In this document: piece by piece, positions 8,518-31,974 of the stretch
How the letters are laid out: every line of letters begins with the position of its first letter
Numbering within the stretch: the stretch's first letter is position 1
NCBI GenBank assembly: GCA_016218805.1
Contig: JACRCW010000091.1
Location: 1-36,860 of the forward strand
DNA from: Deltaproteobacteria bacterium
GTDB taxonomy: Bacteria > Myxococcota > JACRCW01
Reading direction: 5' to 3'
Length of the DNA stretch: 36,860 nucleotides
The notes under the pieces: generated by a model
Database searches by the model: none
What the model saw: only the letters and a program-made list of their open reading frames with translations
Told to the model about the DNA's origin: nothing
Translations under genes and position numbers: made by a program

Positions 8518-9724
8518 TGGGCTTGCTGAACAGGTAGCCCTGCCCCACGTCACAACCCAGTTCCTCCAGCACGGCCAGCTGCTCGCGCGTTTCCACGCCT
8601 TCGGCCACCACCACCAGCTCCATCCGGTGCGCCATCTCCACCACGGCGCGCGCAATGGAGCGTGCCCGCGCGCTGACCGGCATGTCCACAACAAAAGACC
8701 GGTCCAGCTTCAGTTCATCCAACGGCAGCCGGTTGAGGTGACCGAGCGACGAGTAGCCCGTCCCGAAGTCATCCAGCGCGATGGTGAACCCCAGGTCCCG
8801 CGCTGCGGTCAGGACCGCGGCGGCGCGCGCCATGTCCCGCGCCACGGAGGTTTCCGTCACCTCCAACTGCACGCGTCCGGTGGCAACACCGGCCTCCGCG
8901 GCCAGGCGCTGCAGGCCCGGAATGAAATCCGCGGATTCAAGCTGGCGGGCGGATACGTTGACCGCCACATGCGGTGGTTCAATTCCGCCCTTTTCCCAGG
9001 CGGCAACCTGCAACATGGCGCACCGTAACACCCAGTTTCCCACGTCAATGATGAGGTCCGTCGCCTCCGCAACGGGAATGAACTCCGCGGGCGGGACAAA
9101 GCCGCCGTCGGCCCGCGGCCAACGGATCAGCGCCTCCGCACCCACCAGCAAGCGCCCGCGGATGGCAACCTTGGGCTGGTAATGCAGTGCAAACGCGTCA
9201 TCACGCAGCGCCGCGCGGATTCCCGCCTCCAGGCGCTGCTGGCCTTCGTCCGGCGGGCGGGCACCGGGCTGCCGCTCCATGCGGCGCCGGAACTCGGCCT
9301 CCGTGGCCTCGCGCCGCTTCAGGCGCGCTCGCACCGCGCGAAGCAGATCGGCCTTGCGGAATGGCTTGGGCACGTAGTCGTCCGCGCCCAGGTCCATGCC
9401 GGTACGCACGTCCGCATCCGAGGTGCGCGCGGAAAGGAAGATGACGGGAATGGCCTCCGTGGCCGGGTTGCCGCGGAGCTCTGCAAGCAGCTGGTGACCG
9501 TCCACGTGCGGCATGGCCACGTCTGAGACCACCAGGTCCGGCAGGCTGGCCACCGCCAGCGCAAGCCCAGCGCGGCCGTCCGCAGCCGCGGAAACACGAA
9601 ATCCCTCGTTTTCCAGAAAGCGCGCAATTGCCGTCCGCAGGCCCGGATCGTCCTCCACCACCAGCACGTGGCGCCCGGCGGCGCCGTCCTGCATGGGTGC
9701 GGGCACCACGGTGCGCTCGCTCAC
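8468..9724 (-). CDS. REC-EAL c-di-GMP phosphodiesterase response regulator
   Basis: REC (VVEDD, VSDVAMP, FLSA, VPKP) then intact EAL motifs: YQPK, EALIRW, VNVS, LEVTE, DDFGTGYSSL, KLDRSFV, AEGVET, QGYLFSKP. No GGDEF. Confidence 0.95.
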   Translation of the reverse strand: MSERTVVPAPMQDGAAGRHVLVVEDDPGLRTAIARFLENEGFRVSAAADGRAGLALAVASLPDLVVSDVAMPHVDGHQLLAELRGNPATEAIPVIFLSARTSDADVRTGMDLGADDYVPKPFRKADLLRAVRARLKRREATEAEFRRRMERQPGARPPDEGQQRLEAGIRAALRDDAFALHYQPKVAIRGRLLVGAEALIRWPRADGGFVPPAEFIPVAEATDLIIDVGNWVLRCAMLQVAAWEKGGIEPPHVAVNVSARQLESADFIPGLQRLAAEAGVATGRVQLEVTETSVARDMARAAAVLTAARDLGFTIALDDFGTGYSSLGHLNRLPLDELKLDRSFVVDMPVSARARSIARAVVEMAHRMELVVVAEGVETREQLAVLEELGCDVGQGYLFSKPITVDEMEARCRLADWG

Positions 9725-10164
9725 CGCGCGCGCGCCGACGGATCAGCCGCGTAGTAGCGGTCAACCAGCGGGAAGAACTCCTCCTCCTCCCGGTTGATGC
9801 GTCGACGCAGCGCAGCGGCCACCGCACGCCACTCGCTCAGGAACTGCGGCCCGGCCATGGCAATCTCGCAGGGGGACTTCCAGCGCGCCAGGAACGCGTC
9901 CAGCTCGCCGCTCAGCAGTTGCAGCTCGTCGCCAAACCGTTCCGCAACCGCCCGCAGGTCCGGGTCACTCTTTTCCCGCAAACCCGCAAACAGCACCCCG
10001 TCCTCCATCGCCAGGTGCACGCGCAGGACCCCCGCCAGCTCGGCCACCACGTTGCGAACGTCCGTGGCGGATTTCTCCACGTCGGAGTCAGCCAGCCGAT
10101 CAAGCTTGCTGGCCTTGTCCAGGATGAGACGATGCTGCCTTCGCAGATTGCTGGTGAATGCCAT
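9721..10164 (-). CDS. Hemerythrin-like (HHE cation-binding) domain protein
   Basis: LRRQH..I, VHLAMEDGVLF and RINREEEEFFP motifs; GGGAG RBS before ATG 10164. Confidence 0.85.
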   Translation of the reverse strand: MAFTSNLRRQHRLILDKASKLDRLADSDVEKSATDVRNVVAELAGVLRVHLAMEDGVLFAGLREKSDPDLRAVAERFGDELQLLSGELDAFLARWKSPCEIAMAGPQFLSEWRAVAAALRRRINREEEEFFPLVDRYYAADPSARAR

Positions 10165-10198
10165 CAAGACTCCCAGCGGGACGCGCCCGGGAGCGCAT

Positions 10199-10214
10199 CG
10201 CACTCCGCGTGCCA
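10199..10214 (-). promoter_or_regulatory. Candidate sigma54 promoter of hemerythrin/REC-EAL operon
   Basis: Minus strand TGGCACGCGGAGTGCG: perfect -24 box TGGCACG, GG-N10-GC. Confidence 0.7.
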
Positions 10215-10340
10215 TGCCATTTCGCCCCGGTCGCGGCGCCGGTGCCCGCCCCACGTCCACGCCCCTGTTCATGACGCTGCGCTCCCCGGGGCGCGAGCCC
10301 GGCACGCTTTCCACTGCAAACATTCCGTGGCGGCATGAGG

Positions 10341-10531: not shown

Positions 10532-10900
10532 ATGACGAGGACCGAAACGCTCAACAAGGTGCTGGCGAACCTCCAGTCCAGCGCGGCGGACATCGAGGCC
10601 GCCGCCGTCGTCTCACCCGACGGCCTGATTATCGCCCATTCCCTGCCGCAGGGTCTGGAGGAGACGCAGATTGCCGCCATGAGCGCAGCGCTGTTGTCCA
10701 TGGGCGTGCGGACCGCCCGTGAGCTGCGCCGCGGTCAACTGGAGCAGTTGTTCGTCAAGGGAACTGAGGGATTCATCGTGATCATGCAGGCGGGGCCCCA
10801 CGCGGTCCTCCTCACGCTCGCACGCCGGGACGCCAAGCTCGGGTTGATCTTCCTCGACGTGTCGCGGGCGGCGGAAGAGATCAAGAAGACACTGGCGTGA
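10532..10900 (+). CDS. Roadblock/LC7 (MglB-like) protein
   Basis: IEAAAVVSPDGLIIA, IAAMSAALLSMG...ELRRGQLEQLFVKG, AKLGLIFLDV; GGAG RBS before ATG 10532. Confidence 0.93.
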   Translation: MTRTETLNKVLANLQSSAADIEAAAVVSPDGLIIAHSLPQGLEETQIAAMSAALLSMGVRTARELRRGQLEQLFVKGTEGFIVIMQAGPHAVLLTLARRDAKLGLIFLDVSRAAEEIKKTLA

Positions 10901-10927: not shown

Positions 10928-11677
10928 ATGATCACGCTCTTTGAGGCACCCCATCACCGCAACGTGATGTTCCATGACATGTCCAGCGGCCAGATGGTCC
11001 AGGCCAACCAGCACGTCATTGTTGACCACGGTGAGTCCATGCTGCTGGACCCGGGCGGTCACAAGGTCTACTCGCGCCTCTTTGGCGAGATGTCCAAGGC
11101 GGCCCCCCCGGCGGGCCTGAAACACCTGTTCTTCTCCCACCAGGACCCGGACATCGTGGCGGCCGCCAACGGCTGGTTCATGGTGACGGAAGCCCGCGGC
11201 TACATCTCTGAGTTGTGGACGCGCTTCGTGCCGCACTTTGGCCTGGATGATCTGGTGGCCGCGCGCCTGCAGGCCATCCCGGACCCGGGCATGACGCTCA
11301 AGGTGGGCCAGTGCGAGTTGCTGATCCTACCCGCCCATTTCCTGCATTCCTCCGGCAACTTCCACGTCTATGACCCCGTCGCCAAGACCCTCTATTCGGG
11401 TGATTTGGGCACGTCCATTGGGCAGGATTACACGGAGGTGGGCAACTTTGATGAGCACGTGCGCTTCATGGAGGGCTTTCACCGCCGCTACATGCCCACG
11501 TCCAAGGCGCTGAAGCGGTGGGTGACCATGGCCCGGAAGCTGGACATTGAGATTCTGGCGCCGCAGCACGGCGCGGTGTTCAAGGGCAAGGAGCGCGTGA
11601 ACCGCTTCCTGGAGTGGGCTGACAACCTGCCCTGCGGGCTGGACCTCATGCCCGACGACGTCGCGCTTCCCCGCTGA
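10928..11677 (+). CDS. ODP-type oxygen-binding di-iron protein (metallo-beta-lactamase fold)
   Basis: VQANQHVI, LLDPGG, FSHQDPD, LWTRFVPH, PAHFLHSSGNF, SGDLG, FHRRYM, APQHG; 249 aa with no flavodoxin domain. Confidence 0.88.
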   Translation: MITLFEAPHHRNVMFHDMSSGQMVQANQHVIVDHGESMLLDPGGHKVYSRLFGEMSKAAPPAGLKHLFFSHQDPDIVAAANGWFMVTEARGYISELWTRFVPHFGLDDLVAARLQAIPDPGMTLKVGQCELLILPAHFLHSSGNFHVYDPVAKTLYSGDLGTSIGQDYTEVGNFDEHVRFMEGFHRRYMPTSKALKRWVTMARKLDIEILAPQHGAVFKGKERVNRFLEWADNLPCGLDLMPDDVALPR

Positions 11678-15770: not shown

Positions 15771-16577
15771 ATGGGAAGGATCATCACGGTGGCGAGCCAC
15801 AAGGGTGGCGTGGGCAAGACCACCACGACGCTCAACCTGGGCTTCAGCCTGGCGCGGGCCGGAGGCCGCACGCTCGTCGTGGACGCGGACCCGCAGGGAG
15901 GGCTGGGCGCTGCGTCCAACGTCCGGTCGCGCACGCCGTTGGGGGTGACGGACGTGCTGGCGGGCCGCGCATCACTTGAGGATGCCATTGCCCGCAGCCG
16001 TTCCGGGAACCTGTCGGTGATTGGAATGGGTGCGGCCACGGCGGAGGATGTGCGCTGCGTGGAGGACGCCGCGGCGGATGGCCGGTTGGCGGACCTGTTG
16101 CGCTCCCTGGCGCCGGCCTGGGACCACGTGCTGGTGGACGCGCCCGCTGGCGTGGGCGGCCTGGTGCGCGCCTTGCTGGACGGGAGTGACGGCGTCCTGC
16201 TGGTGCTGCATTGCCGGCCCATTGCCGTCCGCACGCTGCCTGCGTTCCTGCGGCTGCTGAAGGACCAGGCGCAGGCCGGGGACGCGCCCCGCCTGGAGGG
16301 TGTGCTGGTCACCATGATGAACCACGCCAGTGCCGTGGACGTGGGCCTCCTGCAGGAGCTGCGCGCGCGCCTGCCGGCGGGCACGTTGTTCCACACCGTG
16401 GTCCCGCAAGACCCGCGTTTTGAATCCGCCAGTGCCCAGGCCATTCCCGTGGCGCTCTCCGCCGAGGCGGCGTCGCTGGCGCGCTACTACCTGGAACTGG
16501 CGATTGAGCTGGAACAGCGCAACCGGCAGGCCGCCGGTGGAGTGGATGATGACGCAGCGTCTGCCTCCCTTTTCTGA
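15771..16577 (+). CDS. ParA/MinD/Soj-family ATPase (orphan, no parB)
   Basis: Deviant Walker A SHKGGVGKTT, VVDADPQG, VLVDAPAG; GGAGG RBS. Confidence 0.93.
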   Translation: MGRIITVASHKGGVGKTTTTLNLGFSLARAGGRTLVVDADPQGGLGAASNVRSRTPLGVTDVLAGRASLEDAIARSRSGNLSVIGMGAATAEDVRCVEDAAADGRLADLLRSLAPAWDHVLVDAPAGVGGLVRALLDGSDGVLLVLHCRPIAVRTLPAFLRLLKDQAQAGDAPRLEGVLVTMMNHASAVDVGLLQELRARLPAGTLFHTVVPQDPRFESASAQAIPVALSAEAASLARYYLELAIELEQRNRQAAGGVDDDAASASLF

Positions 16578-17121
16578 GATTGACGAGGCTGCGAGCCTGG
16601 CGCGGGAAATCGCGGTGCTTGGCGTTTCTACGCGGAGGACCAGCCGGCCCCCGCCGGCGTCCGCGCGTGCCCGCGCCGTCCCGCCGCCCGCCCCGGACCG
16701 GCTGCCGCCGTTGCCGCCCCGTCCCGCGGCCACGGGTAGCTACCGGTCGGACCGGCTCGGCTCGCTGCTGGCGGGGATGTGCCACCGCGGAGGGTTTGCC
16801 GCCGCGCTGCTGGCGGACCGGGGCGGACTTGCCCTGGTGGGTCACAACAGCGCCCCCAACGCGGACCGCGCCGCGGCGTTTGCTTCCATCGTCGGCGAGG
16901 CCATCACGCGCGCCGAGACATTGCTCAGCGTCCCGCAGGCCAACAACCTGGCGCTGGACATCAACCTCCAACAGAAGATTGTCATTCACCGCTTTCCTGC
17001 CGCCGGGGAGGAGTTCCTCCTCATGGTCACGTGTGACCAGGACGTTGACGTGCGCGCTGAGACCGAGGCCACGGTGGAGCACCTGGCCCGCGAGCTGGCG
17101 CCCGCACTGGAGGCCGGATGA
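16546..17121 (+). CDS. Pro-rich linker + Roadblock/profilin-like domain protein
   Basis: C-terminal GFAAALLADRGGLALVG...RAAAFASIVGEA...KIVIHRF...FLLMVTC pattern resembles Roadblock/LC7; overlaps both neighbours. Confidence 0.7.
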   Translation: MMTQRLPPFSEIDEAASLAREIAVLGVSTRRTSRPPPASARARAVPPPAPDRLPPLPPRPAATGSYRSDRLGSLLAGMCHRGGFAAALLADRGGLALVGHNSAPNADRAAAFASIVGEAITRAETLLSVPQANNLALDINLQQKIVIHRFPAAGEEFLLMVTCDQDVDVRAETEATVEHLARELAPALEAG

Positions 17122-18248: not shown

Positions 18249-19658
18249 ATGCCCGCCGTGCACCGCCACCTCCCGACCCCTGTTGCCGGTTTGGCCGGCG
18301 TCCGCGTGCTCCTGCTGGAGCGCGATGACTCCCGCCGCGCTGCGGTGCGTGACGCCCTGCAGTCCTGCGGTGCGGTGGTGGGTGACGTTCCCGCCAGCTG
18401 CGCCGCGCCGGAGCGGCACGGGGTCCGCGGCGGGTTTGACGTGGCGCTCTGGGACGGCACGCTCACGGGCCGGTGGAACCTGGATGACCTCCAGCGGTTC
18501 CACGCCGCCCAGCCGGAGATTGCCGTGGTTGTCACCACGGCCCGGGATTCCGCGGCATTTGCTGTGACCGCGCTGCGCCGCGGCGCGCACCATGTGGTGG
18601 TGCGCCCCGCGCGCTTGGAGGAATTGCTGCGCATTGTGGCGGACGTGGCGCTGGCCACGCGCGTCCCCCTTCCCGCTCCTGCCGCCGTGGAGGGCGGCTG
18701 TGTGGTGGCCGGCGCGGCCATGCGGGAGGTGATGGACACACTGCGCCGGGTGGCGGACTCCGCCGCGCCCGTGCTCCTCCTCGGTGAGACCGGGGTCGGC
18801 AAGGACGTTGTGGCGCGCCTGTTGCACGCGCGCAGCGCACGGGCGGCGGGTCCGTTTGTCGCCGTGAACTGCGCTGCGCTCCCCGTGGCGCTTGCCGAAT
18901 CCGAGTTGTTTGGCCACGAGCGCGGGGCGTTCACCGGCGCCACCGCGGACCGGCCGGGCCGTTTTGCGGAGGCGGATGGCGGAACGCTGCTGTTGGACGA
19001 GGTGGGAGAGCTGCACGTGCGGCTGCAGGCCAAGCTGTTGCGCGTTCTGCAGGACGGAACGCTGCCACGCGTTGGCGGTCCTACGCATCGCGCGGACGTG
19101 CGGGTGGTGGCGTCCACCCACCGCGACCTCCGCGCCGACATGCGCCATGGCCGCTTCCGCTCCGACCTGTTCCATCGCCTGAATGTCCTGGCCATCCGCC
19201 TTCCGCCGCTGCGTGAACGCGTGGATGAGATCCCGGCGCTGGCCACCCACCTGCTCCACCGCCTGGCCGTGCAAGAGCAGTGCGTGCCGCGGCCGCTGCT
19301 GCCAAATGCCATCCGCGCCCTGCAGGAACATGCGTGGCCCGGCAACGTGCGCGAGTTGGAGAACCTGCTGCGCCGCACCCTCCTCACGCGGCCGGGCTCC
19401 GTGATCTCCGCGGCTCACCTCGCGTGGCCCGAGCCCGGACCGCTGCCCGCGGTCACCGCCGCACCCCTCGCCACGCCTGCCGGCCCGGCACCGGCGCGGG
19501 GCACCACCATGCGTTCCGCCGCCATGGAGCGCGAGGCCACCACCATGCTCCGCGCGCTGGAGGTGTACGGCGGCAACGTCCGGGAGGCCGCGCGCTCGCT
19601 CGGGATTTCGCGCGCCACCTACTACCGGAAGGCCCGCCGGCTGGGGCTCCGCCTGTGA
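18249..19658 (+). CDS. Sigma54-dependent enhancer-binding protein with degenerate receiver
   Basis: GETGVGKD, ESELFGHERGAFTGA, LLLDEVGE, WPGNVREL, Fis-type HTH GISRATYYRK. Receiver atypical (LLERDD; RP in place of KP). Confidence 0.93.
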   Translation: MPAVHRHLPTPVAGLAGVRVLLLERDDSRRAAVRDALQSCGAVVGDVPASCAAPERHGVRGGFDVALWDGTLTGRWNLDDLQRFHAAQPEIAVVVTTARDSAAFAVTALRRGAHHVVVRPARLEELLRIVADVALATRVPLPAPAAVEGGCVVAGAAMREVMDTLRRVADSAAPVLLLGETGVGKDVVARLLHARSARAAGPFVAVNCAALPVALAESELFGHERGAFTGATADRPGRFAEADGGTLLLDEVGELHVRLQAKLLRVLQDGTLPRVGGPTHRADVRVVASTHRDLRADMRHGRFRSDLFHRLNVLAIRLPPLRERVDEIPALATHLLHRLAVQEQCVPRPLLPNAIRALQEHAWPGNVRELENLLRRTLLTRPGSVISAAHLAWPEPGPLPAVTAAPLATPAGPAPARGTTMRSAAMEREATTMLRALEVYGGNVREAARSLGISRATYYRKARRLGLRL

Positions 19659-23078: not shown

Positions 23079-24212
23079 TCAGAGCACGTCCCCGTCTGAC
23101 AGCGAACGACCGCTTCCCGCCGCGGCGGGTGCGGCCGTTGGCGCGTGCGCCAACCGCTGCCGCACGTCACGGAGCACGGCGAGAAGCTCCCCCACAGTCA
23201 CCGGCCCGGTGCGAAGCCGCAGTGCGTCCAACTCCCGGTCCCGGCCGCTCACCGGCAGCAGCCGTTCCAACTCCGCGGGCGGGAGCGGCTGCGCCGGATC
23301 CCCCACGGCCTCCAACCGCGTGATGACGTCGCTGACCACGGCAAGATCGTGTTCGCGCAGCTCGGCGCGGTTGTTAACCCCCAGCAGGATTTCCGCGGCA
23401 CTGGCAATGTCGCGCCAGAGGCGCTGCCCCGCCTGCGCCCCCCCCGCCGCGCCCTGCGCGGCCGCGCGCAGCCACTCCATGAGCCGCGCATGCAGCGTCC
23501 GCAGCAGAATCCGGTCGTCCACGCGCATGGCCGGATAGATGGCGCGGCCGGTCAGCTTGACAATGCTGGTTGCCGCAACACGCACACGCTTCACCACGTC
23601 GTCGGGACCCGGCTCACCGCTTCCCAGGATGTCCGCGCAAAAGGTCACATACGTACGGCGGACCTCGCGGGACGTGGCCACCTCGGACTGGTAGTCACTC
23701 CCCGTGTACGGAAGACCTTCAAACCCGCACACGGCCAGTTCCAGTGCCCCCAGCGATTTGCGGACTTCCCGGCACGCGCTCCCGGCGATGGAGATGATCT
23801 CCCACTTGTCCGCGCTGGCAACGGACGCGGCCAGTGCCTCCCTGCGGTCACGCAGCGCGAGCCGCCCGATGAAGGCCAGGTCCGCGACGTCCTGGGCCGA
23901 CCGGATGGACGCCACGCGACGGTCCATCTCCAGGCCGACCTTGGCCTCCGCGCACGGCGCGGGATGCGTGCCGGGGGCTTCGTAGTAGTTCACCACCAGC
24001 CCCATGATCTCCGTGGCCACTTCCACCGCCGCGGCCACGCGGGGCACCAACCCGCGGCACGCGTCAATCTCTGCCTCCTCGTAGTTGGCAATCGATATCG
24101 CCTCCACCTGCGCGAGGCTGGCGCAAATAAAGCGCAGGAAATCGCGCGGAGGGACCACGCGGGGGGGCGCGGAGCCCGCGGCGGTTGATTCCTCGACGAC
24201 AACGGTGCTCAT
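23079..24212 (-). CDS. Uncharacterised alpha-helical protein (377 aa)
   Basis: Long ORF with GC-rich codon usage; start placed at ATG 24212 (MSTVVVEES) just downstream of a sigma54-like element; no domain recognised. Confidence 0.8.
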   Translation of the reverse strand: MSTVVVEESTAAGSAPPRVVPPRDFLRFICASLAQVEAISIANYEEAEIDACRGLVPRVAAAVEVATEIMGLVVNYYEAPGTHPAPCAEAKVGLEMDRRVASIRSAQDVADLAFIGRLALRDRREALAASVASADKWEIISIAGSACREVRKSLGALELAVCGFEGLPYTGSDYQSEVATSREVRRTYVTFCADILGSGEPGPDDVVKRVRVAATSIVKLTGRAIYPAMRVDDRILLRTLHARLMEWLRAAAQGAAGGAQAGQRLWRDIASAAEILLGVNNRAELREHDLAVVSDVITRLEAVGDPAQPLPPAELERLLPVSGRDRELDALRLRTGPVTVGELLAVLRDVRQRLAHAPTAAPAAAGSGRSLSDGDVL

Positions 24213-24224
24213 GGCCAGGCGAGT

Positions 24225-24240
24225 TTCAATGCGCGTGCCA
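24225..24240 (-). promoter_or_regulatory. Candidate sigma54 promoter (GA variant at -12)
   Basis: Minus strand TGGCACGCGCATTGAA: perfect TGGCACG-N4-TTG with A replacing C. Confidence 0.65.
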
Positions 24241-24271
24241 GGACGCCCCGCAGCATCCAGCGCAAACCGGC

Positions 24272-24407
24272 GTTGGGCGGGGGCTTGTCCCCCGACCGGT
24301 TCGGTCGAACGCGAGCGCGCCAGCTTCCGGACCGCAATGGTCTTCAAACACCCGCCCCACCTCCGCCTCTGCATCCCAATCCGGCGGGGGACAAGCCCCC
24401 GCCCTAC
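24272..24407. repeat. Inverted pair of GTAG-type REP palindromes (REPIN/BIME-like doublet)
   Basis: GTTGGGCGGGGGCTTGTCCCCCGACCGG (24272-24299) and the reverse complement of GTAGGGCGGGGGCTTGTCCCCCGCCGG (24381-24407); each has an internal hairpin; 81-bp spacer. Confidence 0.8.
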
Positions 24408-24530
24408 GGAGATCTCGCTGGGGATCGACGCCACCGACCAAGCCATCGCGCTTTCACGACACCGTCGTCACCGCTCTCGCATGCACGCGTCATGGATGTT
24501 GGACACGCTGCGCTTATGACCACGCACAAG

Positions 24531-24567
24531 CGCTCCGCCCTTGAGACGGTGTGCCGCTGACGAGACA
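24531..24567. promoter_or_regulatory. Tandem candidate EBP binding sites
   Basis: CGCTCCG-CCCT-TGAGACG (24531) and TGTGCCG-CTGA-CGAGACA (24550), between divergent sigma54-like promoters. Confidence 0.5.
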
Positions 24568-24647
24568 CCGCCCGCGCAAAGCGTGCGGGAAGGTGGATTG
24601 AACTCCTTCCGCCGCGCCACCGTTCCCAACGCGCGTTGCGAAAGCGT

Positions 24648-24663
24648 TGGATTGGACCTTGCA
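24648..24663 (+). promoter_or_regulatory. Candidate sigma54 promoter of ABC-phosphatase operon
   Basis: TGGATTGGACCTTGCA, GG-N10-GC with perfect TTGCA. Confidence 0.6.
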
Positions 24664-24675
24664 CCGCGCCCACGC

Positions 24676-26025
24676 ATGCCCTTGGAAGCAAGTGTGGACG
24701 GGAACAGCGTTGATCCGCCGATCACGCTCCCGGTGCAAGCCGCGCCGCCGCCGGCGCCCGCCCTGGAATTGATGGGTTTTGGCGTCGCCTTTGGCGACAG
24801 CGTGGTGCTCCACCGCGTGACGCTGGCCGTGCCGCCCGTGGGTGTCACCGTGCTCATGGGCCCCGGTGGCGCCGGAAAATCCACACTGGTCCGCACGCTG
24901 GCCGGCGCCAATGACTCCCAGCCCACGCTGCGCACCTGGGGAAGCGTGCAATACCGGGGCGCCCCCTGGCGTGCTGGTGAGCTTCCGGCCCTGGTTCACC
25001 AGAACGCGCGGCTCATGACGGCGTCCGTGTTTGACAACCTGGCGCTATCCCTGCGGGGCCGGCCGCGCCTCACCCGCCCGCAGCAGCGTGACGCCGTGGT
25101 GGCAGCGTTGGAGCGGTTCCAGATGGGTGAGTTGGCGTCACGCCTGGATGACAGCGTCCTGACCCTGCCGCTGGCGGTGCAGCGCCAGGTTGCGCTGGCC
25201 CGAACCGCGCTGGGTGACCCGGCGCTCCTGTGCGTGGACGAGCCCACCGCGGGCCTGGATGACGACGCCCGGCAACGCATCATTGCGATGATTCTCCGCG
25301 AAGCCGAACAGCGCGCCGTGCTCCTGGTCACCCACCACCAGCGCGAGGCCCGCGCCATGGGCGGCCAGACCGCGCTGCTCGCCGGCGGAGTGCTGCAGGA
25401 ATGTGCCTCCACGCAGGCGTTCTTTGAATCCCCGCAATCGGAAGCCGGCCGGAAATTCGTGGCGTGGGGCAGTTGCGCGGTCCCGGCGCCGGAGGACGCG
25501 CGCGTCCCGCCGCCGGGGGCCTCGGCCGGTTCCGCTGCGCCACGCGGATTCCACTGGATTCGGCGCGGCCTGCTCGCCGGGCTGCCGCGGCCCGGCCTCC
25601 TGTCGGACACGGAGGAGGACCTGGCCGCGCTGGGCGCGTTGGGCATCCGGGTCCTCGTGTGCCTGGAGGAACAGCGCACGGTCCCCGAACCGCTGCTGTC
25701 GCGCGTCGGAATCGTCGGGTTGTTCCTCCCCATCACGGACATGCGCGCCCCGGACGTCGCGGATGCGTGGGGCATGTGTTCGCTCGTCCACCATGAGATG
25801 GCCCGCGGCCACGCCGTCGCCTACCACTGCCGCGCCGGGCTGGGCCGCACGGGAACCCTGCTCGCGGCGCAACTGATCTTCAGCGGACAGACCGCGCTGG
25901 AGGCGCTGGAGGCCGTCCGCCACGTGCAGGCGCGGTTCGTGCAGTCACCCGAGCAGGTGGATTTCCTCTCGGCGTTTGAACGCCATGCCAGGCACAAGAG
26001 CGCCGGGGACACCCGCAACAGTTGA
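24676..26025 (+). CDS. ABC-type ATPase fused to CX5R protein tyrosine/dual-specificity phosphatase
   Basis: Walker A GPGGAGKS, Q-loop VHQN, degenerate signature LPLAVQRQVALAR, Walker B LCVDEP, H-loop LVTHH; then PRGFHW, PITDMRAP, HCRAGLGRTG and VQSPEQ phosphatase motifs. Start uncertain. Confidence 0.88.
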   Translation: MPLEASVDGNSVDPPITLPVQAAPPPAPALELMGFGVAFGDSVVLHRVTLAVPPVGVTVLMGPGGAGKSTLVRTLAGANDSQPTLRTWGSVQYRGAPWRAGELPALVHQNARLMTASVFDNLALSLRGRPRLTRPQQRDAVVAALERFQMGELASRLDDSVLTLPLAVQRQVALARTALGDPALLCVDEPTAGLDDDARQRIIAMILREAEQRAVLLVTHHQREARAMGGQTALLAGGVLQECASTQAFFESPQSEAGRKFVAWGSCAVPAPEDARVPPPGASAGSAAPRGFHWIRRGLLAGLPRPGLLSDTEEDLAALGALGIRVLVCLEEQRTVPEPLLSRVGIVGLFLPITDMRAPDVADAWGMCSLVHHEMARGHAVAYHCRAGLGRTGTLLAAQLIFSGQTALEALEAVRHVQARFVQSPEQVDFLSAFERHARHKSAGDTRNS

Positions 26026-26065
26026 TACGCACTGGGACAACACCCCCACACACAAGGACACCATC

Positions 26066-26470
26066 ATGTCTCTCGAGAAGGCTCTCAATGCATCCATGCC
26101 CGGTATTCCTGAATGCCTCGCCGCGGGCTACGTCGACATGAGCACCGGAATGCTGCTGGCCGTGAAAACGGTGGATTCACACCCTGCTGAAGTGCTGGAC
26201 CTGGTGGCCGCAGCCACCGCGGACATGTTCCAGGGCACCAACGTCAGCGCCATTGAGCGGATGTTCAAGCGTTCGCGCGGCCTCCCGGACGACGGGCACC
26301 ACTATTTCCAGGAAATGATTGTCAACAGCGACAATCTGGTCCACATGTTCCTGCGCGGGAAGAAACACGACAACCACGCGCTGATCTTCGTGTGCCGCAA
26401 CACCGCCAACATCGGCATGATCATCAGCAAGTCCCGGCTGGCGCTTCCCACCATCGAAGCGGCACTCTGA
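26066..26470 (+). CDS. Small Roadblock/LC7-like fold protein
   Basis: IPECLAAGYVDMSTGMLL...LDLVAAATADMF...FQEMIVNS...HMFLR...ANIGMII pattern; AAGGA RBS. Confidence 0.75.
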   Translation: MSLEKALNASMPGIPECLAAGYVDMSTGMLLAVKTVDSHPAEVLDLVAAATADMFQGTNVSAIERMFKRSRGLPDDGHHYFQEMIVNSDNLVHMFLRGKKHDNHALIFVCRNTANIGMIISKSRLALPTIEAAL

Positions 26471-26490
26471 TTCCCTGACAACGCGCACTG

Positions 26491-26524
26491 CGCAGTACCG
26501 CCCCGCGCCTGGGGCGGTGCTGCG
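26491..26524. terminator. GC-rich hairpin between convergent genes (probable terminator)
   Basis: CGCAGTACCGCCCC-GCGCCT-GGGGCGGTGCTGCG, 14-bp stem with one G-T pair; no U-tract. Confidence 0.55.
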
Positions 26525-26557
26525 TACTGGCACACCCTGCCAAATCGCGCCTCCCAG

Positions 26558-28177
26558 TCAGCGCAGTTCGTCCAGCGTGAAGGTGAACCGGCCCGCGTAC
26601 TTCCGCCGCTGCGGAACAAACATCGCAATGGGATCGGGATACGCCTCAATTGCGTGAACGCGCTCCCGCACGTGGATGCGCAGGATCTCCCGGAACCGCT
26701 GTTCGCTGAGCAGGCCCCAACTCACCAGCACCTCGCCCAGGTTGCGGCCCTCCCGGCGGCATTCCTGCACCACGTGCCCAACCTCCGCCGGCGGAAGCCC
26801 CTCTTCCAGCAGCCGGTCCGTCAGGACGCCCCGCACACACGTTGCGTGCGCCCACGCCACCCGGCCCTGGAACACGTAGATGCGCCCCACATCCTTGGCG
26901 CTGCGCACCACCACTTCGCCACCGTGCGCGTTCTCCATGGCCTCCGCCAACACGCGCCGCACCACCGCGCCGCCCGGCTGGGCCGGCGGAGGGAGCGGCG
27001 CGCGGTCCGGGGCCGGCGCAGGCGCCGCCGGGCGCTGGACGCCGCTGGCCTCAATGGCGGCGGTGCCCGGCGGATCACCCAGCTGGCGGTGCAACTCAAC
27101 AAACGCCCCCCGCATGGAGCCCAGCGCCTCCACCGCAAGCGGACTGAACTGGGCCCCGGCGCGTGCCGTGATCCACGCAAACGCCTCGTCCACGCTGGCC
27201 GCCTTCTTGTACGGCCGCTCGCTCGTCAGCGCGTCAAAGACGTCCGCCACAATGGCCAACTGCGCGTGGACGGGGATGGCGTCACGCACGGCGCCATGGG
27301 GATAGCCCGTTCCGTCCCACGCTTCATGGTGGTGGAGCACAATGTCGCGCGCCACGCGGAGGAACACGGACTCCGGTTGCACAGCCAGCACACGGTCAAT
27401 GATGTCCGCGCCCAGGCGGGGGTGCTGCCGCATGACCGCCTGTTCAGCTTCATCCAGGCGCCCGGGCTTGAGGAGGATGGCGTCGGGGATGCCCACCTTG
27501 CCAATGTCATGCAGCATGGCGCACCGGCCAATGACGTCGGGAGGCGGCAGCCACTCCGGCAGCGCTCCCGCGCGCTGCTCCTTCGTCCACCGCGCCAGGT
27601 GCGCCGTGTACGCCTCAATGCGCTGCAGGTGACGCCCCGTGGTCCGGTCGCGCTGCTCAGCCAGGCTGGCCAGCGCCAGGATGGTGCTGTCCCGCGCCTC
27701 GGTGGCCTGGCGCGCCAGCTGCGAAAGCCGCTCTTCCATCTGGTGGTCCAGCGTGACATCCCGCATCGTTGCCAGGATGTAGCCGGGGTTTGTTGACGTG
27801 GCGTTGACCTTCACCAGCGACAGGTCCGCGTGAAACAGTGAGCCATCCGCGCGCCGGTTCACCAGCCGTCCGCGGTACCTCCCGCATGACCCCAGCGCGT
27901 CCCACAGTGCACGGATGGCCTCCGCGCTCGTCTGGTTGGACCGCAGCAGTGAGGGCTTGCGCCCGACGAGGTCTTGGAGCGCATAGCCGGTGAGGTCACA
28001 GTACGCCCGGTTGGCCCACTGGAATGTGCTGTCGCAATCCGTGACCGCCACGGCGGCGTCCACGTGTTCAAACACCTGCCAGAACTCCGTGAGGCCCGGC
28101 AGCGCAGCGAACTGCCGGCCTGCCAAGGTCTGGCGGTGGGATGCATCCTGCTTGTCAACCATGTGGTCTGGCTCCAT
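26558..28177 (-). CDS. PAS + HD-GYP phosphodiesterase + C-terminal DUF4388-like domain
   Basis: PAS (WANRAYCDLTGY...GRKPSLLRS); canonical HD-GYP (TGRHLQRI, LHDIGKVGIPDAILLKPG, HHEAWDGTGYP, ADVFDALTSERPYKK); C-terminal GEVVVRS...GRIYVFQGRVAWA...LGEVLVSWGLL. Start at 28177 or 28162. Confidence 0.92.
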   Translation of the reverse strand: MEPDHMVDKQDASHRQTLAGRQFAALPGLTEFWQVFEHVDAAVAVTDCDSTFQWANRAYCDLTGYALQDLVGRKPSLLRSNQTSAEAIRALWDALGSCGRYRGRLVNRRADGSLFHADLSLVKVNATSTNPGYILATMRDVTLDHQMEERLSQLARQATEARDSTILALASLAEQRDRTTGRHLQRIEAYTAHLARWTKEQRAGALPEWLPPPDVIGRCAMLHDIGKVGIPDAILLKPGRLDEAEQAVMRQHPRLGADIIDRVLAVQPESVFLRVARDIVLHHHEAWDGTGYPHGAVRDAIPVHAQLAIVADVFDALTSERPYKKAASVDEAFAWITARAGAQFSPLAVEALGSMRGAFVELHRQLGDPPGTAAIEASGVQRPAAPAPAPDRAPLPPPAQPGGAVVRRVLAEAMENAHGGEVVVRSAKDVGRIYVFQGRVAWAHATCVRGVLTDRLLEEGLPPAEVGHVVQECRREGRNLGEVLVSWGLLSEQRFREILRIHVRERVHAIEAYPDPIAMFVPQRRKYAGRFTFTLDELR

Positions 28178-28214
28178 CGCTACGCCCCGCGTCCTCCCCG
28201 CCGGCGGTACCCCT

Positions 28215-28230
28215 TCCAAGTCGCGTGCCG
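28215..28230 (-). promoter_or_regulatory. Candidate sigma54 promoter (GG variant at -12)
   Basis: Minus strand CGGCACGCGACTTGGA. Confidence 0.45.
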
Positions 28231-28242
28231 GCCCTGCGGTGA

Positions 28243-28258
28243 AGGCATGCCGGGTGCA
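28243..28258 (+). promoter_or_regulatory. Candidate sigma54 promoter of YkgJ-like gene
   Basis: AGGCATGCCGGGTGCA, GG-N10-GC; back-to-back with the leftward element. Confidence 0.55.
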
Positions 28259-28280
28259 GCGCTCGGAGCGGGGAGGCCGG

Positions 28281-28646
28281 ATGGCGGACACCTACCTGGA
28301 CTGCGAGGAGGGCCGGCGGTTGGGCTGTGCCACCTTCTGCTGCCGGCTCATTGTCCGCCTGGAAGAACACGAGCGGCCGCTCGCCGCGCCGGGACAGCCA
28401 CGCAAGAGCTGTGTGGACAAGGACCCGGTGGATGGCCTGTGCATCCACCTGGACCGCACCACCCACCGCTGTCTCATCTGGGAACAGCGCCCCGCCGTTT
28501 GTCGCACTTACGAGTGCAACACCGATCCGCTCCTGCAGGTGGTGCTTCGCGAGGGATTCAGCGGATTGCGCGCACTGGTCACCTCCAGGCTGCGCGTCCC
28601 GCTGGCGGACTGGCGCACCATTCCGCGCCGGCCGCCGCCGTCCTGA
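28281..28646 (+). CDS. YkgJ/CxxCxxCC-type cysteine-cluster (putative Fe-S/Zn) protein
   Basis: C..GCATFCC, CIHLD....RCLIWEQRPAVCRTYEC; GGGAGG RBS. Confidence 0.85.
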   Translation: MADTYLDCEEGRRLGCATFCCRLIVRLEEHERPLAAPGQPRKSCVDKDPVDGLCIHLDRTTHRCLIWEQRPAVCRTYECNTDPLLQVVLREGFSGLRALVTSRLRVPLADWRTIPRRPPPS

Positions 28647-28685
28647 AGAGACGGTGTGGGGCCCTTGGCGGTCCATGCCACCTCT

Positions 28686-28901
28686 TCACTCCACCTCCGG
28701 CTCCGCCGGCGGAGGCGCCTCAAAACCGGTACGGTTGTGCGATCCGTCGCACAGCGGGCGCACGCGCGTTGCGCCGCACCGGCACAGCAGCACGCGCTGG
28801 CGGCCCGCTGTCTCCACCGGCCGCCCATCCAGATCAACCAGGTCAATGTCGCCCTCAACCACCAGGGGGCCCCGTGCCCGGGGCGAAATGCGGACTTTCA
28901 C
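28686..28901 (-). CDS. CDGSH iron-sulfur domain protein
   Basis: GPLVVEG...LCRCGATRVRPLCDGSH; GTG start overlaps the upstream TGA. Confidence 0.92.
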   Translation of the reverse strand: MKVRISPRARGPLVVEGDIDLVDLDGRPVETAGRQRVLLCRCGATRVRPLCDGSHNRTGFEAPPPAEPEVE

Positions 28902-29506
28902 CGCGGCACCTCCACACCCGGCGGGGCGGACGCGCCCTGCGCCACACAACCGGCGCAAACGGACCGGCCGGTCCGCACGTGGTAGCGGACGCGCGCGCCG
29001 GGCGGGACCTCGCTGCCACACGCATCACAGAGCATTCCCACCGTCACGTCCACGTCGTCGTAGCCCTCCAGCGGAAGTTCCACGCCACCCAGCTTGCGCG
29101 GCCGCGGCGCCGCCTTCACGATCTGTTTGCGGAACACTTCCTCGGTGGCGCGCCAGCGCCGCACCAGGTGGTCCGCCAGGCCGTGCCGCCGCAGGCACTG
29201 CTCCATGAGCGCCTCGCGGTGGTCAAACAACTCGTCAGAGATCACCATCCAGTGATGCGCGTTGCGCGGGCGGTCACCGAAGTAACACTTCTCCCCGGAG
29301 AAGATCTGCTTGAGAAACGAGTACTGCTTCTCCACGGCGCGTTGCCGGGTCACGCCCTCAAAAAAGTGCGCCAGGCGCGGGTCCGCGTACACGCGCTCAT
29401 AGAAATCCCGCAGGATACGGCCCAGCAGGTCGTTCTCGGCGAGCGCAGCCCACAGCTCGGGGTCGGGCGCCAGGTCTCCGCGCCGCCGCCGGTGTTCGCC
29501 GCTCAT
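28898..29506 (-). CDS. Truncated (2/2, group I-like) globin with C-terminal CxxC...CxxC ribbon
   Basis: DFYERVYADPRLAHFFEG, KQYSFL, YFG...RNAH..M.IS...FD globin pattern; then CDAC-x20-CAGC. Confidence 0.85.
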   Translation of the reverse strand: MSGEHRRRRGDLAPDPELWAALAENDLLGRILRDFYERVYADPRLAHFFEGVTRQRAVEKQYSFLKQIFSGEKCYFGDRPRNAHHWMVISDELFDHREALMEQCLRRHGLADHLVRRWRATEEVFRKQIVKAAPRPRKLGGVELPLEGYDDVDVTVGMLCDACGSEVPPGARVRYHVRTGRSVCAGCVAQGASAPPGVEVPR

Positions 29507-30156
29507 GCGTCAAACTCCTCGGGGTATGCGGCGGGATCAAACCCGTGCTTTCGCAGCGGCTCAACCACGCGGTGCCGCGTGATGCGCGCGTTGGACAGGA
29601 TGAACGCCCGCACGACGTGGTCACGCTCCACGCGGTGCCCACCGCGGCTGCGGGAGACGTGCTCCGCATTGCGGACCACCTTGCGGCGGGCCAGCGCGCG
29701 GAACAGCGCCGGCACGCTCTGCAACATGCTCTTGAGCAGCGCCTCCGCGTCCGGCTGCCATCCCATCTCCACCGGCAGCTCCGGCACAAACCCGTACTCG
29801 TCCTCGGAGAGATCCCGCTGGAGCGTCACCGTGTTCCCGTCCGGGTCCGCCACAGACGCCAGCAGTTCCAGCGCCGGGGTCCGCATGGGTTCCGCCAGTG
29901 AGCGCGCTCCATGCTCCAACAGGAAGCGGTAGGCCGCCTCCACCTCGCGCACGCCAACACGCACAGCCGCCCGCCGGTCCGGCTGCGTCACCTCCACCAG
30001 TCGCAGCACCACGCTGCCCGTGTCCACGTCGACAAAACCGTCCCCGTGACGCGTGACCGGGAAGCCCAGTGCATCTGAGTAGAACGCGCGCGCGCGGCCC
30101 AGGTCACGCGTGGGCACATCCACGTGTGTCACCCCATAAAAGCTCGGCTTGGCCAT
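29503..30156 (-). CDS. VOC/glyoxalase domain fused to DUF2621/PCP_red-like helical domain
   Basis: HVDVPTRDLGRARAFYSDALGF...DPDGN (VOC); WQPDAEALL...VPALFRALARRKV...VVRAFI (DUF2621/PCP_red-like). Confidence 0.82.
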   Translation of the reverse strand: MAKPSFYGVTHVDVPTRDLGRARAFYSDALGFPVTRHGDGFVDVDTGSVVLRLVEVTQPDRRAAVRVGVREVEAAYRFLLEHGARSLAEPMRTPALELLASVADPDGNTVTLQRDLSEDEYGFVPELPVEMGWQPDAEALLKSMLQSVPALFRALARRKVVRNAEHVSRSRGGHRVERDHVVRAFILSNARITRHRVVEPLRKHGFDPAAYPEEFDA

Positions 30157-30262: not shown

Positions 30263-30492
30263 CACCACGCCACCGCTGCGCGCGCCAGCGGCGCACGGGG
30301 CGCACCACGACGACGTTGTGCCCCACGGCCGCGCACCGGTGGCGCTCCCGTCCGGCAAGAAGCGCCCGCCGCCTGAGGCCCAAGCGCGGCCGCCACCGCA
30401 ACCGGGCTTGCGGCAAACGCGGCATTGAGCGAGAAGTCACGGTCCACACGTCCGTTCCCGTGCCGGTCGCGCCCGGCTCTTCGAGGGTACTT

Positions 30493-31974
30493 GTGATTGA
30501 AACCCGGCCAGGCCCCGCGTGGGTCACCAGCGAAAGCGCCGCCGCGCTGAACGCGGCGTGCATCCTGGTTGTGGAGGATGACCCGGTCCAGCGGGACCTG
30601 CTGTCAGACACCTTGCGCGCCGCCGGGTGCGAGGTGGCAACCGCCGCCGACACCGCCCAGGCGGAGGCGCAGCTGCTGGGGGACGAGGCTGCCGGCCCGT
30701 TTGACGCGGTGCTGCTGGACATCATGTTGCCGCGTGAGAGCGGACTGGACCTGCTGGTCCGCCTGCATGCTGCATTGCCCGCGTTGCCCGTGGTCATGCT
30801 GACGGCGCGGGACACCGCCGCTGACGCGGTGTTTGCACTCCGCCATGGAGCGTTTGATTTCCTGGTGAAACCGGCGCGCCAGGAGGAGCTGCTGTTGGTG
30901 CTCCGCAACGCCGTGGAGAAAGCCCGGATGGCGCGGGAACTGGAGGCGCGCCGCGCGCTGACCGGTCCCGTGGTGGAAGAAGGCGAGTTTGTCTTTGCCG
31001 GCCCCGCCATGCGCGGCGTGCTGGCCACGCTGGACCTGGTGGCCGCGTCCAGCGCGCCGGTCCTGCTGCTCGGGGAGAGCGGCACTGGCAAGGACGTGGC
31101 GGCACGCGTGCTGCACCGGCGGAGTCCCCGCCGGAACAAGCCGTTTGTCGCCGTCAACTGCGCTGCCCTGCCGCGTGAGCTGGCGGAGAGTGAATTGTTC
31201 GGCCACCAGCGCGGCGCGTTCACGGGCGCCACCGCGCAACGCGCCGGCCGGTTTGAGGAGGCAGACGGTGGCACGCTGTTTCTTGACGAGGTGGCCGAGC
31301 TGGACCCGCTGATCCAGGCCAAGCTGCTGCGCGTCCTCCAGGAGCGCGAGGTGACGCGCGTCGGCGGTCCCACGGTGCGGGTGGACGTCCGCGTGGTCGC
31401 CGCCACCAACCGTGACCTCATGGCGGAGGTGCGGGCCAACCGGTTCCGCGAGGACCTCTACTACCGCCTTGAGGTCATCAGCCTCCGCATGCCGCCGCTG
31501 CGCGAGCGCGTGGAGGAGATTCCGCTGCTGGCCACCAAGCTGCTGGAGCGCATGGCGGTGCAGGAGCACCAGGCCGCGCGGCACTTGTTGCCGGACGCGG
31601 TGGCGGCCCTGCAGGCGCAACCCTGGCCGGGCAACGTACGCGAACTGGAGAACCTGCTGCGGCGCACCACGCTGTTGCGTCCCGGCGCCAGCATCTCCGC
31701 GGCGGACCTGGCGTGGCCCGCTCCGGGCGCGCCCGGCGCCCGCGCGGTTGACGCCGCCCCGCCCTCCGCGCCCGCCGCTGAGACGGCGCCCGCGGCGGCG
31801 TCCACCCCGCCGCGTGAAGCGTCGCTTTCCTCCGCCGTGGAGGAGCGCGAAGCGGAGGTCATGCTGCAGGCCCTGGCGGACGCGCATGGCAACGTCACCC
31901 AGGCTGCCGCCATGCTGGGAATTGGCCGCGCCACGTTCTACCGCAAGGCCCGGCGCTACCAGCTGCGCTTCTGA
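30493..31974 (+). CDS. NtrC-type sigma54 response regulator (REC-AAA+-HTH)
   Basis: Intact REC (VVEDD, LLDIMLP, MLTA, LVKP); GESGTGKD, GAFTGA, FLDEVAE, FREDLYYRL, HTH GIGRATFYRK. GTG start chosen from a GAGGG RBS (uncertain). Confidence 0.94.
   Translation: MIETRPGPAWVTSESAAALNAACILVVEDDPVQRDLLSDTLRAAGCEVATAADTAQAEAQLLGDEAAGPFDAVLLDIMLPRESGLDLLVRLHAALPALPVVMLTARDTAADAVFALRHGAFDFLVKPARQEELLLVLRNAVEKARMARELEARRALTGPVVEEGEFVFAGPAMRGVLATLDLVAASSAPVLLLGESGTGKDVAARVLHRRSPRRNKPFVAVNCAALPRELAESELFGHQRGAFTGATAQRAGRFEEADGGTLFLDEVAELDPLIQAKLLRVLQEREVTRVGGPTVRVDVRVVAATNRDLMAEVRANRFREDLYYRLEVISLRMPPLRERVEEIPLLATKLLERMAVQEHQAARHLLPDAVAALQAQPWPGNVRELENLLRRTTLLRPGASISAADLAWPAPGAPGARAVDAAPPSAPAAETAPAAASTPPREASLSSAVEEREAEVMLQALADAHGNVTQAAAMLGIGRATFYRKARRYQLRF

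Follow-up and report, generated by a model that had tools for sequence, protein, structure and literature searches.

In a stretch of 36,860 nucleotides from a bacterium of the phylum Myxococcota (positions 1 to 36,860 of contig JACRCW010000091.1, assembly GCA_016218805.1; the whole stretch is called the window below) we have analyzed a gene which joins the nucleotide-binding domain (NBD) of an ATP-binding cassette (ABC) protein to a dual-specificity phosphatase with a CX5R active site, together with the gene that follows it, coding for a small protein of the Roadblock type. Both genes are real; the fusion and the Roadblock protein are inherited together as a conserved core pair, which looks like a signaling switch without a role in transport and is apparently unstudied. 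The literature searched holds no description of such a module; surveys of the rhodanese-phosphatase superfamily and of ABC ATPases, which lie outside that search, may list the architecture. The genes and motifs concerned are the following.

24676..26025, + strand: ABC-NBD/CX5R dual-specificity phosphatase fusion gene (open reading frame (ORF) of 449 aa)
24763..25470, + strand: PstB-like ABC nucleotide-binding domain, residues 30-265 (NCBIfam and fold matches)
24859..24885, + strand: Walker A GPGGAGKST, residues 62-70, kept in 120/120 aligned homologs
25165..25179, + strand: degenerate signature LPLAV, residues 164-168, family consensus LPLxxQR (aligned against PstB)
25225..25242, + strand: Walker B LLCVDE, residues 184-189, with catalytic Glu189; the D-loop follows
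25333..25335, + strand: H-loop His220, in 120/120 homologs
25468..25476, + strand: GSC motif at the end of the NBD (Cys267), family-specific (alignments)
25537..25983, + strand: DUSP23/Cdc14-like phosphatase domain, residues 288-436 (sequence and fold matches)
26054..26058, + strand: AAGGA, resembling a ribosome-binding site, 7 nt ahead of the ATG of the Roadblock gene
26066..26470, + strand: 134-aa protein with a predicted Roadblock/MglB fold (ORF and model), 40 nt downstream of the fusion

The Fusion Gene and Its Conserved Partner

The initial annotation of this DNA had read the ABC motifs, the altered signature LPLAV and the phosphatase motif HCRAGLGRT from the translation of the fusion gene; all of them are present as claimed, and both ORFs lie where it placed them. 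The public gene call begins 6 codons later, and homologs begin near residue 29. Pfam matches ABC_tran at residues 45-192 (E 1e-15) and DSP-PTPase families at residues 289-436 (E 3e-18), and both domains are present in the AlphaFold model (pLDDT 91.9, pTM 0.87). The GC content of third codon positions is of coding type in both frames (0.85 for the fusion, 0.80 for the 134-aa protein), neither protein has a predicted membrane helix, a promoter and terminator scan gave no signal above shuffled sequences, and a search of sequencing runs gave no RNA run.

Among 8000 scored candidates, 1841 match the fusion at E 0.001, a count which may take in ordinary ABC proteins. The best 120 of these 1841, which form the alignment used for the motif counts below, are all full-length two-domain proteins with at least 44% identity and at least 90% query cover. 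Cultured hosts of the fusion are Marinobacter guineae, Parathalassolituus penaei, Extensimonas soli and a Wenzhouxiangella sp. Long variants of 850-1250 aa occur as well (L097:3274-6900, L148:3191-6958, L142:1-2568, and in L127, L120 and L096, where L numbers are our labels for loci); these consist of an N-terminal region, an intact NBD, a second NBD without Walker A and H-loop, and the phosphatase, and the Roadblock gene still comes after them.

The tight linkage of the two genes is seen in three collections. A genome scan gave at least 80 loci, with at least 22 fusions among those listed, and two loci from relatives bring the fusion-anchored genome loci to 24; the listed hosts are Myxococcota, Gamma- and Betaproteobacteria, a planctomycete and an acidobacterium. 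The Roadblock gene lies within 6 kb of the fusion in 21 of these 24 loci. In two of the remaining three the contig ends within the gene or just past it, and in the third (L018) only 1.3 kb of upstream sequence is available. Seen from the other side, a phosphatase is found in 68/80 Roadblock-anchored metagenome loci, and in 35/35 when at least 2 kb is available on each side. Finally, among 301 genomes of the same phylum, which are kin so that the counts are not independent, 11 have the fusion and 13 the Roadblock gene, with all 11 in common. The pairing of an NTPase with a Roadblock protein, which the initial annotation had suggested, is thus borne out as a conserved one. In genome G231 a single stop separates the NBD and the phosphatase into two frames, with the Roadblock gene present, and genome G173 has a Roadblock gene only, a distant member.

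The Nucleotide-Binding Domain

In an ordinary ABC protein the ATP site is completed by the signature of a second NBD, and the D-loops stabilize the dimer, as described in excerpts of PMC7756269. The family was compared with this scheme in the 120-row alignment and in a more diverse set, for which 81 NBDs from the loci were thinned to 60 rows including the window NBD and then reduced to 53 by removal of the seven that lack Walker A (six are second copies, one is truncated). Walker A, the Q-loop Gln109, the Asp-Glu of Walker B and His220 are kept in 120/120 and 53/53 family NBDs, and Gln109 is present in the window fusion too. The SGG of the signature is found in 0/120 and 0/53, versus 19/20 PstB and 36/37 other importer NBDs, and the D-loop Asp in 43/120 and 16/53, versus 20/20 PstB and 37/37 other NBDs. 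Because signature and D-loop serve the second NBD, the family can be said to have kept the motifs that act in cis and lost those that act in trans. The A-loop residue of the window NBD is Phe39, so that this domain has the full set of motifs by which a single NBD holds and cleaves its ATP. The Cys of the GSC motif is found in 119/120 close and 44/53 diverse homologs and in none of 89 other NBDs; the same motif terminates the stand-alone NBD of the split form.

The domain is likely of PstB ancestry. Its best NCBIfam model is PstB (TIGR00972; 114.5 bits, below the cut-off of 343.2), and its best fold matches are to E. coli PstB. A tree of 142 rows groups the family NBDs in a single clade (SH-aLRT 97), separate from the PstB clade (100); the branch joining the two has a support of 81, with PstB sampled from one phylum. 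The true PstB of the window genome is encoded on another contig (C28).

The fusion almost certainly has a role other than transport, as the initial annotation had proposed from the lack of a permease or binding-protein gene nearby. No such family was found among the 36 + 8 window ORFs scanned, and just one window frame has at least three predicted membrane helices, a MASE3 sensor at a distance of 24 kb. Within 4 kb of the module at 92 loci there are 31 frames with at least three membrane helices, of which one codes for an importer permease and another for a self-contained exporter; no transport gene is conserved there, and with an importer permease at 1/92 loci a conserved permease partner was rejected.

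It might still be argued that the NBD docks on a remote permease such as PstCA, so that the phosphatase would respond to phosphate or to the state of transport. PstB signals through PhoU, and PstB is both the best profile and fold match and the neighboring clade in the tree. However, besides the single importer permease and the separate PstB of the genome, the domain has no signature with which to build a site with a partner NBD, and the helical protein encoded next to the fusion (377 aa, see below) was rejected as a PhoU homolog with an hhalign probability of 0.4%. We regard such docking as very improbable.

The Phosphatase Domain

The P-loop HCRAGLGRT occupies residues 384-392 (nt 25825-25851), with Asp355 as general acid and Gln423 further downstream; Asp355, HCxxGxGRT and Gln423 are kept in 120/120 homologs. 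The closest solved sequences are CCaDUSP (25XA, E 5e-20) and human DUSP23 (E 2e-12), followed by archaeal protein tyrosine phosphatases (PTPs) and Cdc14. The fold agrees with this, since the best overlays are with Tk-PTP (Z 22.9, root mean square deviation (rmsd) 1.9, 153 residues aligned) and VHZ (Z 22.6, rmsd 1.8, 149 aligned). The active site is complete, and the phosphatase is very probably active. Among the 91 phosphatase domains from the loci the commonest P-loop is HCKAGLGRTG (31/91), which we take to be the Cdc14 motif. Where DUSP23a, Tk-PTP and CCaDUSP have their second general-acid Glu, the alignment shows the invariant Gln423, which is part of a VQSxxQ loop; this loop resembles the Q-loop of classical PTPs.

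The top Pfam model of the domain is Tc-R-P ("polymorphic toxin system"; 66.7 bits, cut-off 27), so the possibility should be considered that the fusion is a conflict or toxin phosphatase and the small protein its immunity factor. One homolog is named "putative toxin" by NCBI, and the spread is patchy (11/301 genomes). The Tc-R-P model is not specific, though, because PTP-SAK passes as well. Neither protein has a membrane helix, there is no secretion or delivery gene among the conserved neighbors, the context is one of signaling, and the partner is highly conserved and not diversifying. To this explanation we give hardly any credence.

The Roadblock Protein

The 134-aa protein has no Pfam or NCBIfam match at E 0.01, PF03259 included, and its nearest named Atlas cluster is Robl_LC7 (at 0.89, a lead only). 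Its predicted structure (pLDDT 89.8) finds MglB and Roadblock structures with Foldseek at E 2e-8 and overlays on them with Z 14.7-14.8 and rmsd 2.1-2.4 over 116-119 residues. By this model it is a protein of the Roadblock/MglB fold, which agrees with the Roadblock-like character that the initial annotation had assigned to it, and it belongs to a distinct and very conserved family which is distinguished by an inserted helix and loop (residues 58-82).

The conservation of the family is extreme. It counts 2916 relatives among 2933 candidates, and in its 120-row alignment 37 columns are invariant. In ten loci where all six common genes occur the mean identity is 67% for the Roadblock protein, 56 for the phosphatase, 52 for MglA, 50 for the globin, 49 for the NBD and 49 for MglB. 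Over the 68 loci with NBD, phosphatase and Roadblock the values are 66%, 39% for the NBD and 49% for the phosphatase, where the 66% is inflated because most of these loci were picked via the Roadblock protein. In two genomes a second, divergent Roadblock copy is found away from the fusion, at L197:6332-6766 and L198:5861-6445, one beside a topoisomerase VI-like gene and the other beside a fragmentary copy of the helical-protein gene.

A Model for the Pair

We propose, somewhat tentatively and from sequence, models and gene context, that the pair could be the core of a cytoplasmic phosphatase signaling module controlled by nucleotide and by the Roadblock protein. The ABC domain would be a nucleotide switch unable to close the normal ATP-sandwich dimer alone. 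Regulation of NTPases by Roadblock proteins is established for MglB, and by analogy with MglB acting on MglA a Roadblock dimer would regulate the ABC domain. The nucleotide state would then decide how active or accessible the attached phosphatase is, or where it is located. As to the separate steps, a direct contact between the Roadblock protein and the fusion is probable, and gating of the phosphatase by ATP is conceivable with odds a little short of even. The retention of the Walker B Glu and the H-loop His argues for a working ATPase. A complex prediction with fusion residues 26-440 and two Roadblock proteins scored 0.01, with the mark at 0.32; it gives no verdict and was used neither way.

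In its most specific form the proposal would be that a monomeric, G-protein-like ABC switch derived from a PstB-like ancestor has its second NBD replaced by a Roadblock dimer as activator, that a zinc-ribbon globin reports O2 or nitric oxide (NO), and that the output is cysteine-based dephosphorylation of proteins. Taken with all these details the proposal is unlikely.

The strongest rival reverses the roles of the parts. Here the Roadblock protein would be a substrate or docking adaptor of the phosphatase, the ABC domain a pseudo-ATPase scaffold, and the Roadblock protein a hub whose phosphorylation the module would adjust and which controls MglA or PATAN proteins. Single chains that contain a Roadblock domain favor this somewhat. 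A scan of 25 long matches, which come from the best 150 of 609 matches in a library clustered at 50%, gave three phosphatase-Roadblock proteins, three Ser/Thr kinase-Roadblock proteins and two with an MglA-like P-loop; several of these may be read-through gene calls. The extreme conservation of the Roadblock protein is what would be expected of a hub, Tyr22, Thr35, Ser38, Thr51, Tyr80 and Ser88 are invariant or near-invariant in its 120 homologs, and the second NBD of the long fusion variants has lost even Walker A. On the other hand, the Walker B Glu and the H-loop His are present in 53/53 first NBDs, and the Roadblock parts of the kinase fusions are members of a subfamily further removed from ours (99-134 bits). 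Members of that distant subfamily are found C-terminally on Ser/Thr kinases and MglA-like GTPases (P0289, P0316 and P0369; P0253 and P0260). On balance we find this reversal of roles rather unlikely.

Several observations weigh against the proposed model. The loss of the signature could equally fit a hydrolysis-dead scaffold, and the window fusion retains the D-loop Asp195. The chains which join Roadblock to a phosphatase, a kinase or a GTPase suit a phosphatase substrate or adaptor no less than an NBD regulator, and none of the 25 long chains joins Roadblock to an NBD alone. In locus L115 the Roadblock gene directly follows MglA with no fusion between them. A conserved cognate kinase was sought and rejected: kinases are found in 5/118 related loci and none on the window contig, and the genome has 72 kinase-like frames. 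The context therefore does not indicate a phosphoprotein substrate, and this speaks against the substrate role of the Roadblock protein as well. Finally the globin, on which a gas input would depend, is missing from 9/24 loci (some of them cut by contig ends) and from the stretches fetched from 4/11 same-phylum genomes.

The Genes around the Pair

In proteobacteria the gene order is receiver/winged helix-turn-helix (wHTH) - MglA - fusion - Roadblock - MglB - globin, the globin being joined to a 2Fe-2S ferredoxin with or without FAD/NAD domains. MglA and the receiver/wHTH gene are present in 11/24 fusion-anchored genome loci. This arrangement differs from that of the window, where the following genes surround the pair.

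23079..24212, - strand: probably all-helical protein of 377 aa that fits no known family, divergent from the fusion (16/118 loci, 6/11 same-phylum genomes)
26558..28291, - strand: PAS - HD-GYP-type - PATAN/DUF4388 protein, convergent on the Roadblock gene; the true start is probably past the first GTG
28281..28646, + strand: CxxCxxCC (putative Zn/Fe-chelating) protein (14/118 loci, both subtypes)
28686..28901, - strand: CDGSH iron-sulfur domain protein (5/118 loci, 3/11 same-phylum genomes)
28898..29506, - strand: group 1 truncated hemoglobin (38/118 loci, 15/24 fusion-anchored loci, 7/11 same-phylum genomes)
29503..30156, - strand: glyoxalase - DUF2621 protein (7/11 same-phylum genomes)

Of the 118 loci, 25 have MglA and 20 have the helical or the PATAN gene, and none has both; lineage may explain the split. 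The window holds the fullest set of the MglA-less subtype, rearranged over 23079-30156. No MglA was found in the fetched same-phylum stretches, and the window genome, which is 92% complete, gave no match to a Group 3 MglA profile, none to PF03029 over the cut-off and none to a receiver-like/wHTH gene of the Group 3 type; PF03029 aside, there are four weak Arf matches elsewhere in the genome. PATAN/DUF4388 proteins adjoin the pair in 8/11 same-phylum genomes. A PATAN domain occurs in 11/118 loci, and the PAS-HD-GYP-PATAN architecture is found beside the pair also in L088 and L195. The 377-aa protein, without Pfam or Atlas assignment, carries the motifs LR..Gt.iakLvGr..Y..lR..DR and G.RLwqd...vN.R.EL..HD and marks the MglA-less subtype.

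The initial annotation had described the fusion as an orphan with the Roadblock gene as its only partner. The Roadblock gene is indeed the only co-oriented neighbor. The description as an orphan is too narrow, since the six flanking genes, although on other strands or in other transcription units, are the same conserved set (globin, PATAN, helical and glyoxalase genes among them), and in proteobacteria the pair is part of an MglA operon.

The globin is found in both subtypes (16/25 MglA loci and 9/20 helical/PATAN loci). Its heme-pocket residues (B10 Tyr, CD1 Phe, E7 Gln and the proximal His) are in register with group 1 truncated hemoglobins, and it ends in a ribbon CxxC...CxxC with four conserved cysteines. 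At L004:10458-12023, L005:10310-11923 and L013:6087-7655 the domains 2Fe-2S, FAD, NAD, truncated hemoglobin and zinc ribbon follow each other in one protein; this is a flavohemoglobin-like set of domains in another order, of which no description was found in the literature searched. Two further neighbors may be mentioned, the gene of a cyclic-nucleotide-binding ion channel, which precedes the fusion by 255 nt (L001:6550-7746, L126:3479-4681), and a heme-copper oxidase subunit I family gene (COX1; could be NO reductase) 3 kb downstream of the module (L008:12239-13684).

Because heme and Fe-S proteins are neighbors of the pair, the input to our proposed module might be O2, NO or redox state, read by the truncated hemoglobin and the Fe-S proteins. 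This is a weaker part of the model than the gating of the phosphatase, and we consider it somewhat doubtful. A redox input could perhaps also come through the conserved Cys267, Cys368, the catalytic Cys385 and Cys17 of the Roadblock protein. The output would be the Group 3 MglA and receiver/wHTH branch in proteobacteria, and the PATAN/HD-GYP (cyclic di-GMP) proteins in the lineage of the window.

The same neighbors (heme, 2Fe-2S, CDGSH and CxxCxxCC proteins) allow a reading in which the pair serves to handle or repair metal cofactors during nitrosative or oxidative stress, with an ABC domain acting like PhnK, SufC or component A2 and a phosphatase acting on a small molecule. PhnK and the A2 component are among the fold matches of the NBD, which ends in a conserved Cys. 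These are generic ABC fold matches, however, and they rank below PstB. The pair is constant and the cofactor genes are variable; the constant partner is the Roadblock protein, and the other recurring neighbors (MglA, MglB, receiver-wHTH, PATAN and HD-GYP) belong to signaling. Cofactor repair is for us an improbable function of the pair.

Other Features of the Contig

The contig is a dense signaling region with chemotaxis, hemerythrin, ODP, HD, histidine kinase, ParA and sigma-54 regulator genes. An MglB-like Roadblock gene at 10532-10900 (+), which is 14 kb from the fusion, scores 109 bits against MglB from the Group 3 operons. It lies directly before an ODP (oxygen-binding di-iron) gene at 10928-11677 (+) and opposite a hemerythrin gene at 9721-10323. 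A ParA/MinD ATPase gene at 15771-16577 (+) overlaps an ORF at 16546-17121 (+) whose C-terminal part is Roadblock-like by eye, and two receiver-DUF4388 genes flank them. The initial annotation saw in our pair an echo of this ParA-Roadblock operon. It turns out to be an analogy only, as the ORF has no Pfam match and does not match the family profile of the 134-aa protein, and neither ParA nor this ORF occurs in any of the 118 loci. No sequence kinship was found between the 134-aa protein and the other Roadblock-like ORFs of the window. Two similar receiver-sigma54-Fis regulator genes, 18249-19658 (+) and 30316-31974 (+), flank the region of the module.

Significance and Comparison with Known Systems

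The family spans several phyla and forms a class of two-domain phosphatases that carry a candidate regulator in their own chain and keep a fixed partner. If the proposed control is true, this would be the first case, in the literature searched, of a Roadblock protein that acts on an ABC ATPase and of a bacterial dual-specificity phosphatase gated by ATP. Roadblock regulation would then reach beyond small GTPases to an ABC ATPase, Group 3 MglA systems would gain an enzymatic output, and an unusual ferredoxin/globin/zinc-ribbon protein would be connected with signaling. The parts are small and soluble and cultured hosts exist, so the module is directly testable.

A close parallel is the MglA-MglB polarity switch of Myxococcus xanthus and Thermus thermophilus, with the Roadblock/LC7 regulators of NTPases, which has the pairing of an MglB fold with a P-loop NTPase in common with the window pair. 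It differs in that the NTPase here is an ABC domain carrying a phosphatase, and in that our Roadblock protein lacks PF03259, has 10-21% identity to MglB structures and has an insert of its own.

The Group 3 MglA systems of beta- and gammaproteobacteria are described in the portion of PMC4316618 (Wuichet and Sogaard-Andersen) consulted as an unknown protein, MglA and one or two MglB. Eleven of the 24 loci place the pair inside a receiver/wHTH - MglA - MglB operon of that description. The words "phosphatase", "globin" and "ferredoxin" are absent from the main text, which makes no mention of the inserted cassette, and the locus of the window is without MglA. The supplementary files searched gave no match, and a neighborhood table may be in a further file. 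A link between a globin and a Roadblock domain is known from HGbRL of Methylacidiphilum, a single protein for which an NTPase-regulating output is proposed in the passages of PMC4476040 that describe it. HGbRL differs from our system by its class of globin, by being one fused chain and by having no ABC-phosphatase.

PstB shares with the family NBD the profile, the sequence and fold match, the THN of the H-loop and a C-terminal FxxP...F/Y..G pattern. The family NBD is set apart by a score of one third of the cut-off, the loss of the signature, a separate clade and no adjoining pstSCA/phoU.

As to the phosphatase, extracts of PMC13687992 count two bacterial dual-specificity phosphatases that are structurally and biochemically characterized, both single-domain, and one of the enzymes it describes, CCaDUSP, is active on para-nitrophenyl phosphate and uses Asp67 and Glu135. 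According to the part of a 2025 review available to us (PMC13577060), all microbial dual-specificity phosphatases identified so far have a single catalytic domain. CCaDUSP, Tk-PTP, SsoPTP and the catalytic domain of Cdc14 have the fold, the type of P-loop (HCRAGYGRT vs HCRAGLGRT) and the general-acid Asp in common with the fusion. The DUSP23/VHZ-like microbial enzymes are single-domain proteins, whereas the fusion has two domains, and in place of the second acid Glu of CCaDUSP and DUSP23a it has Gln423.

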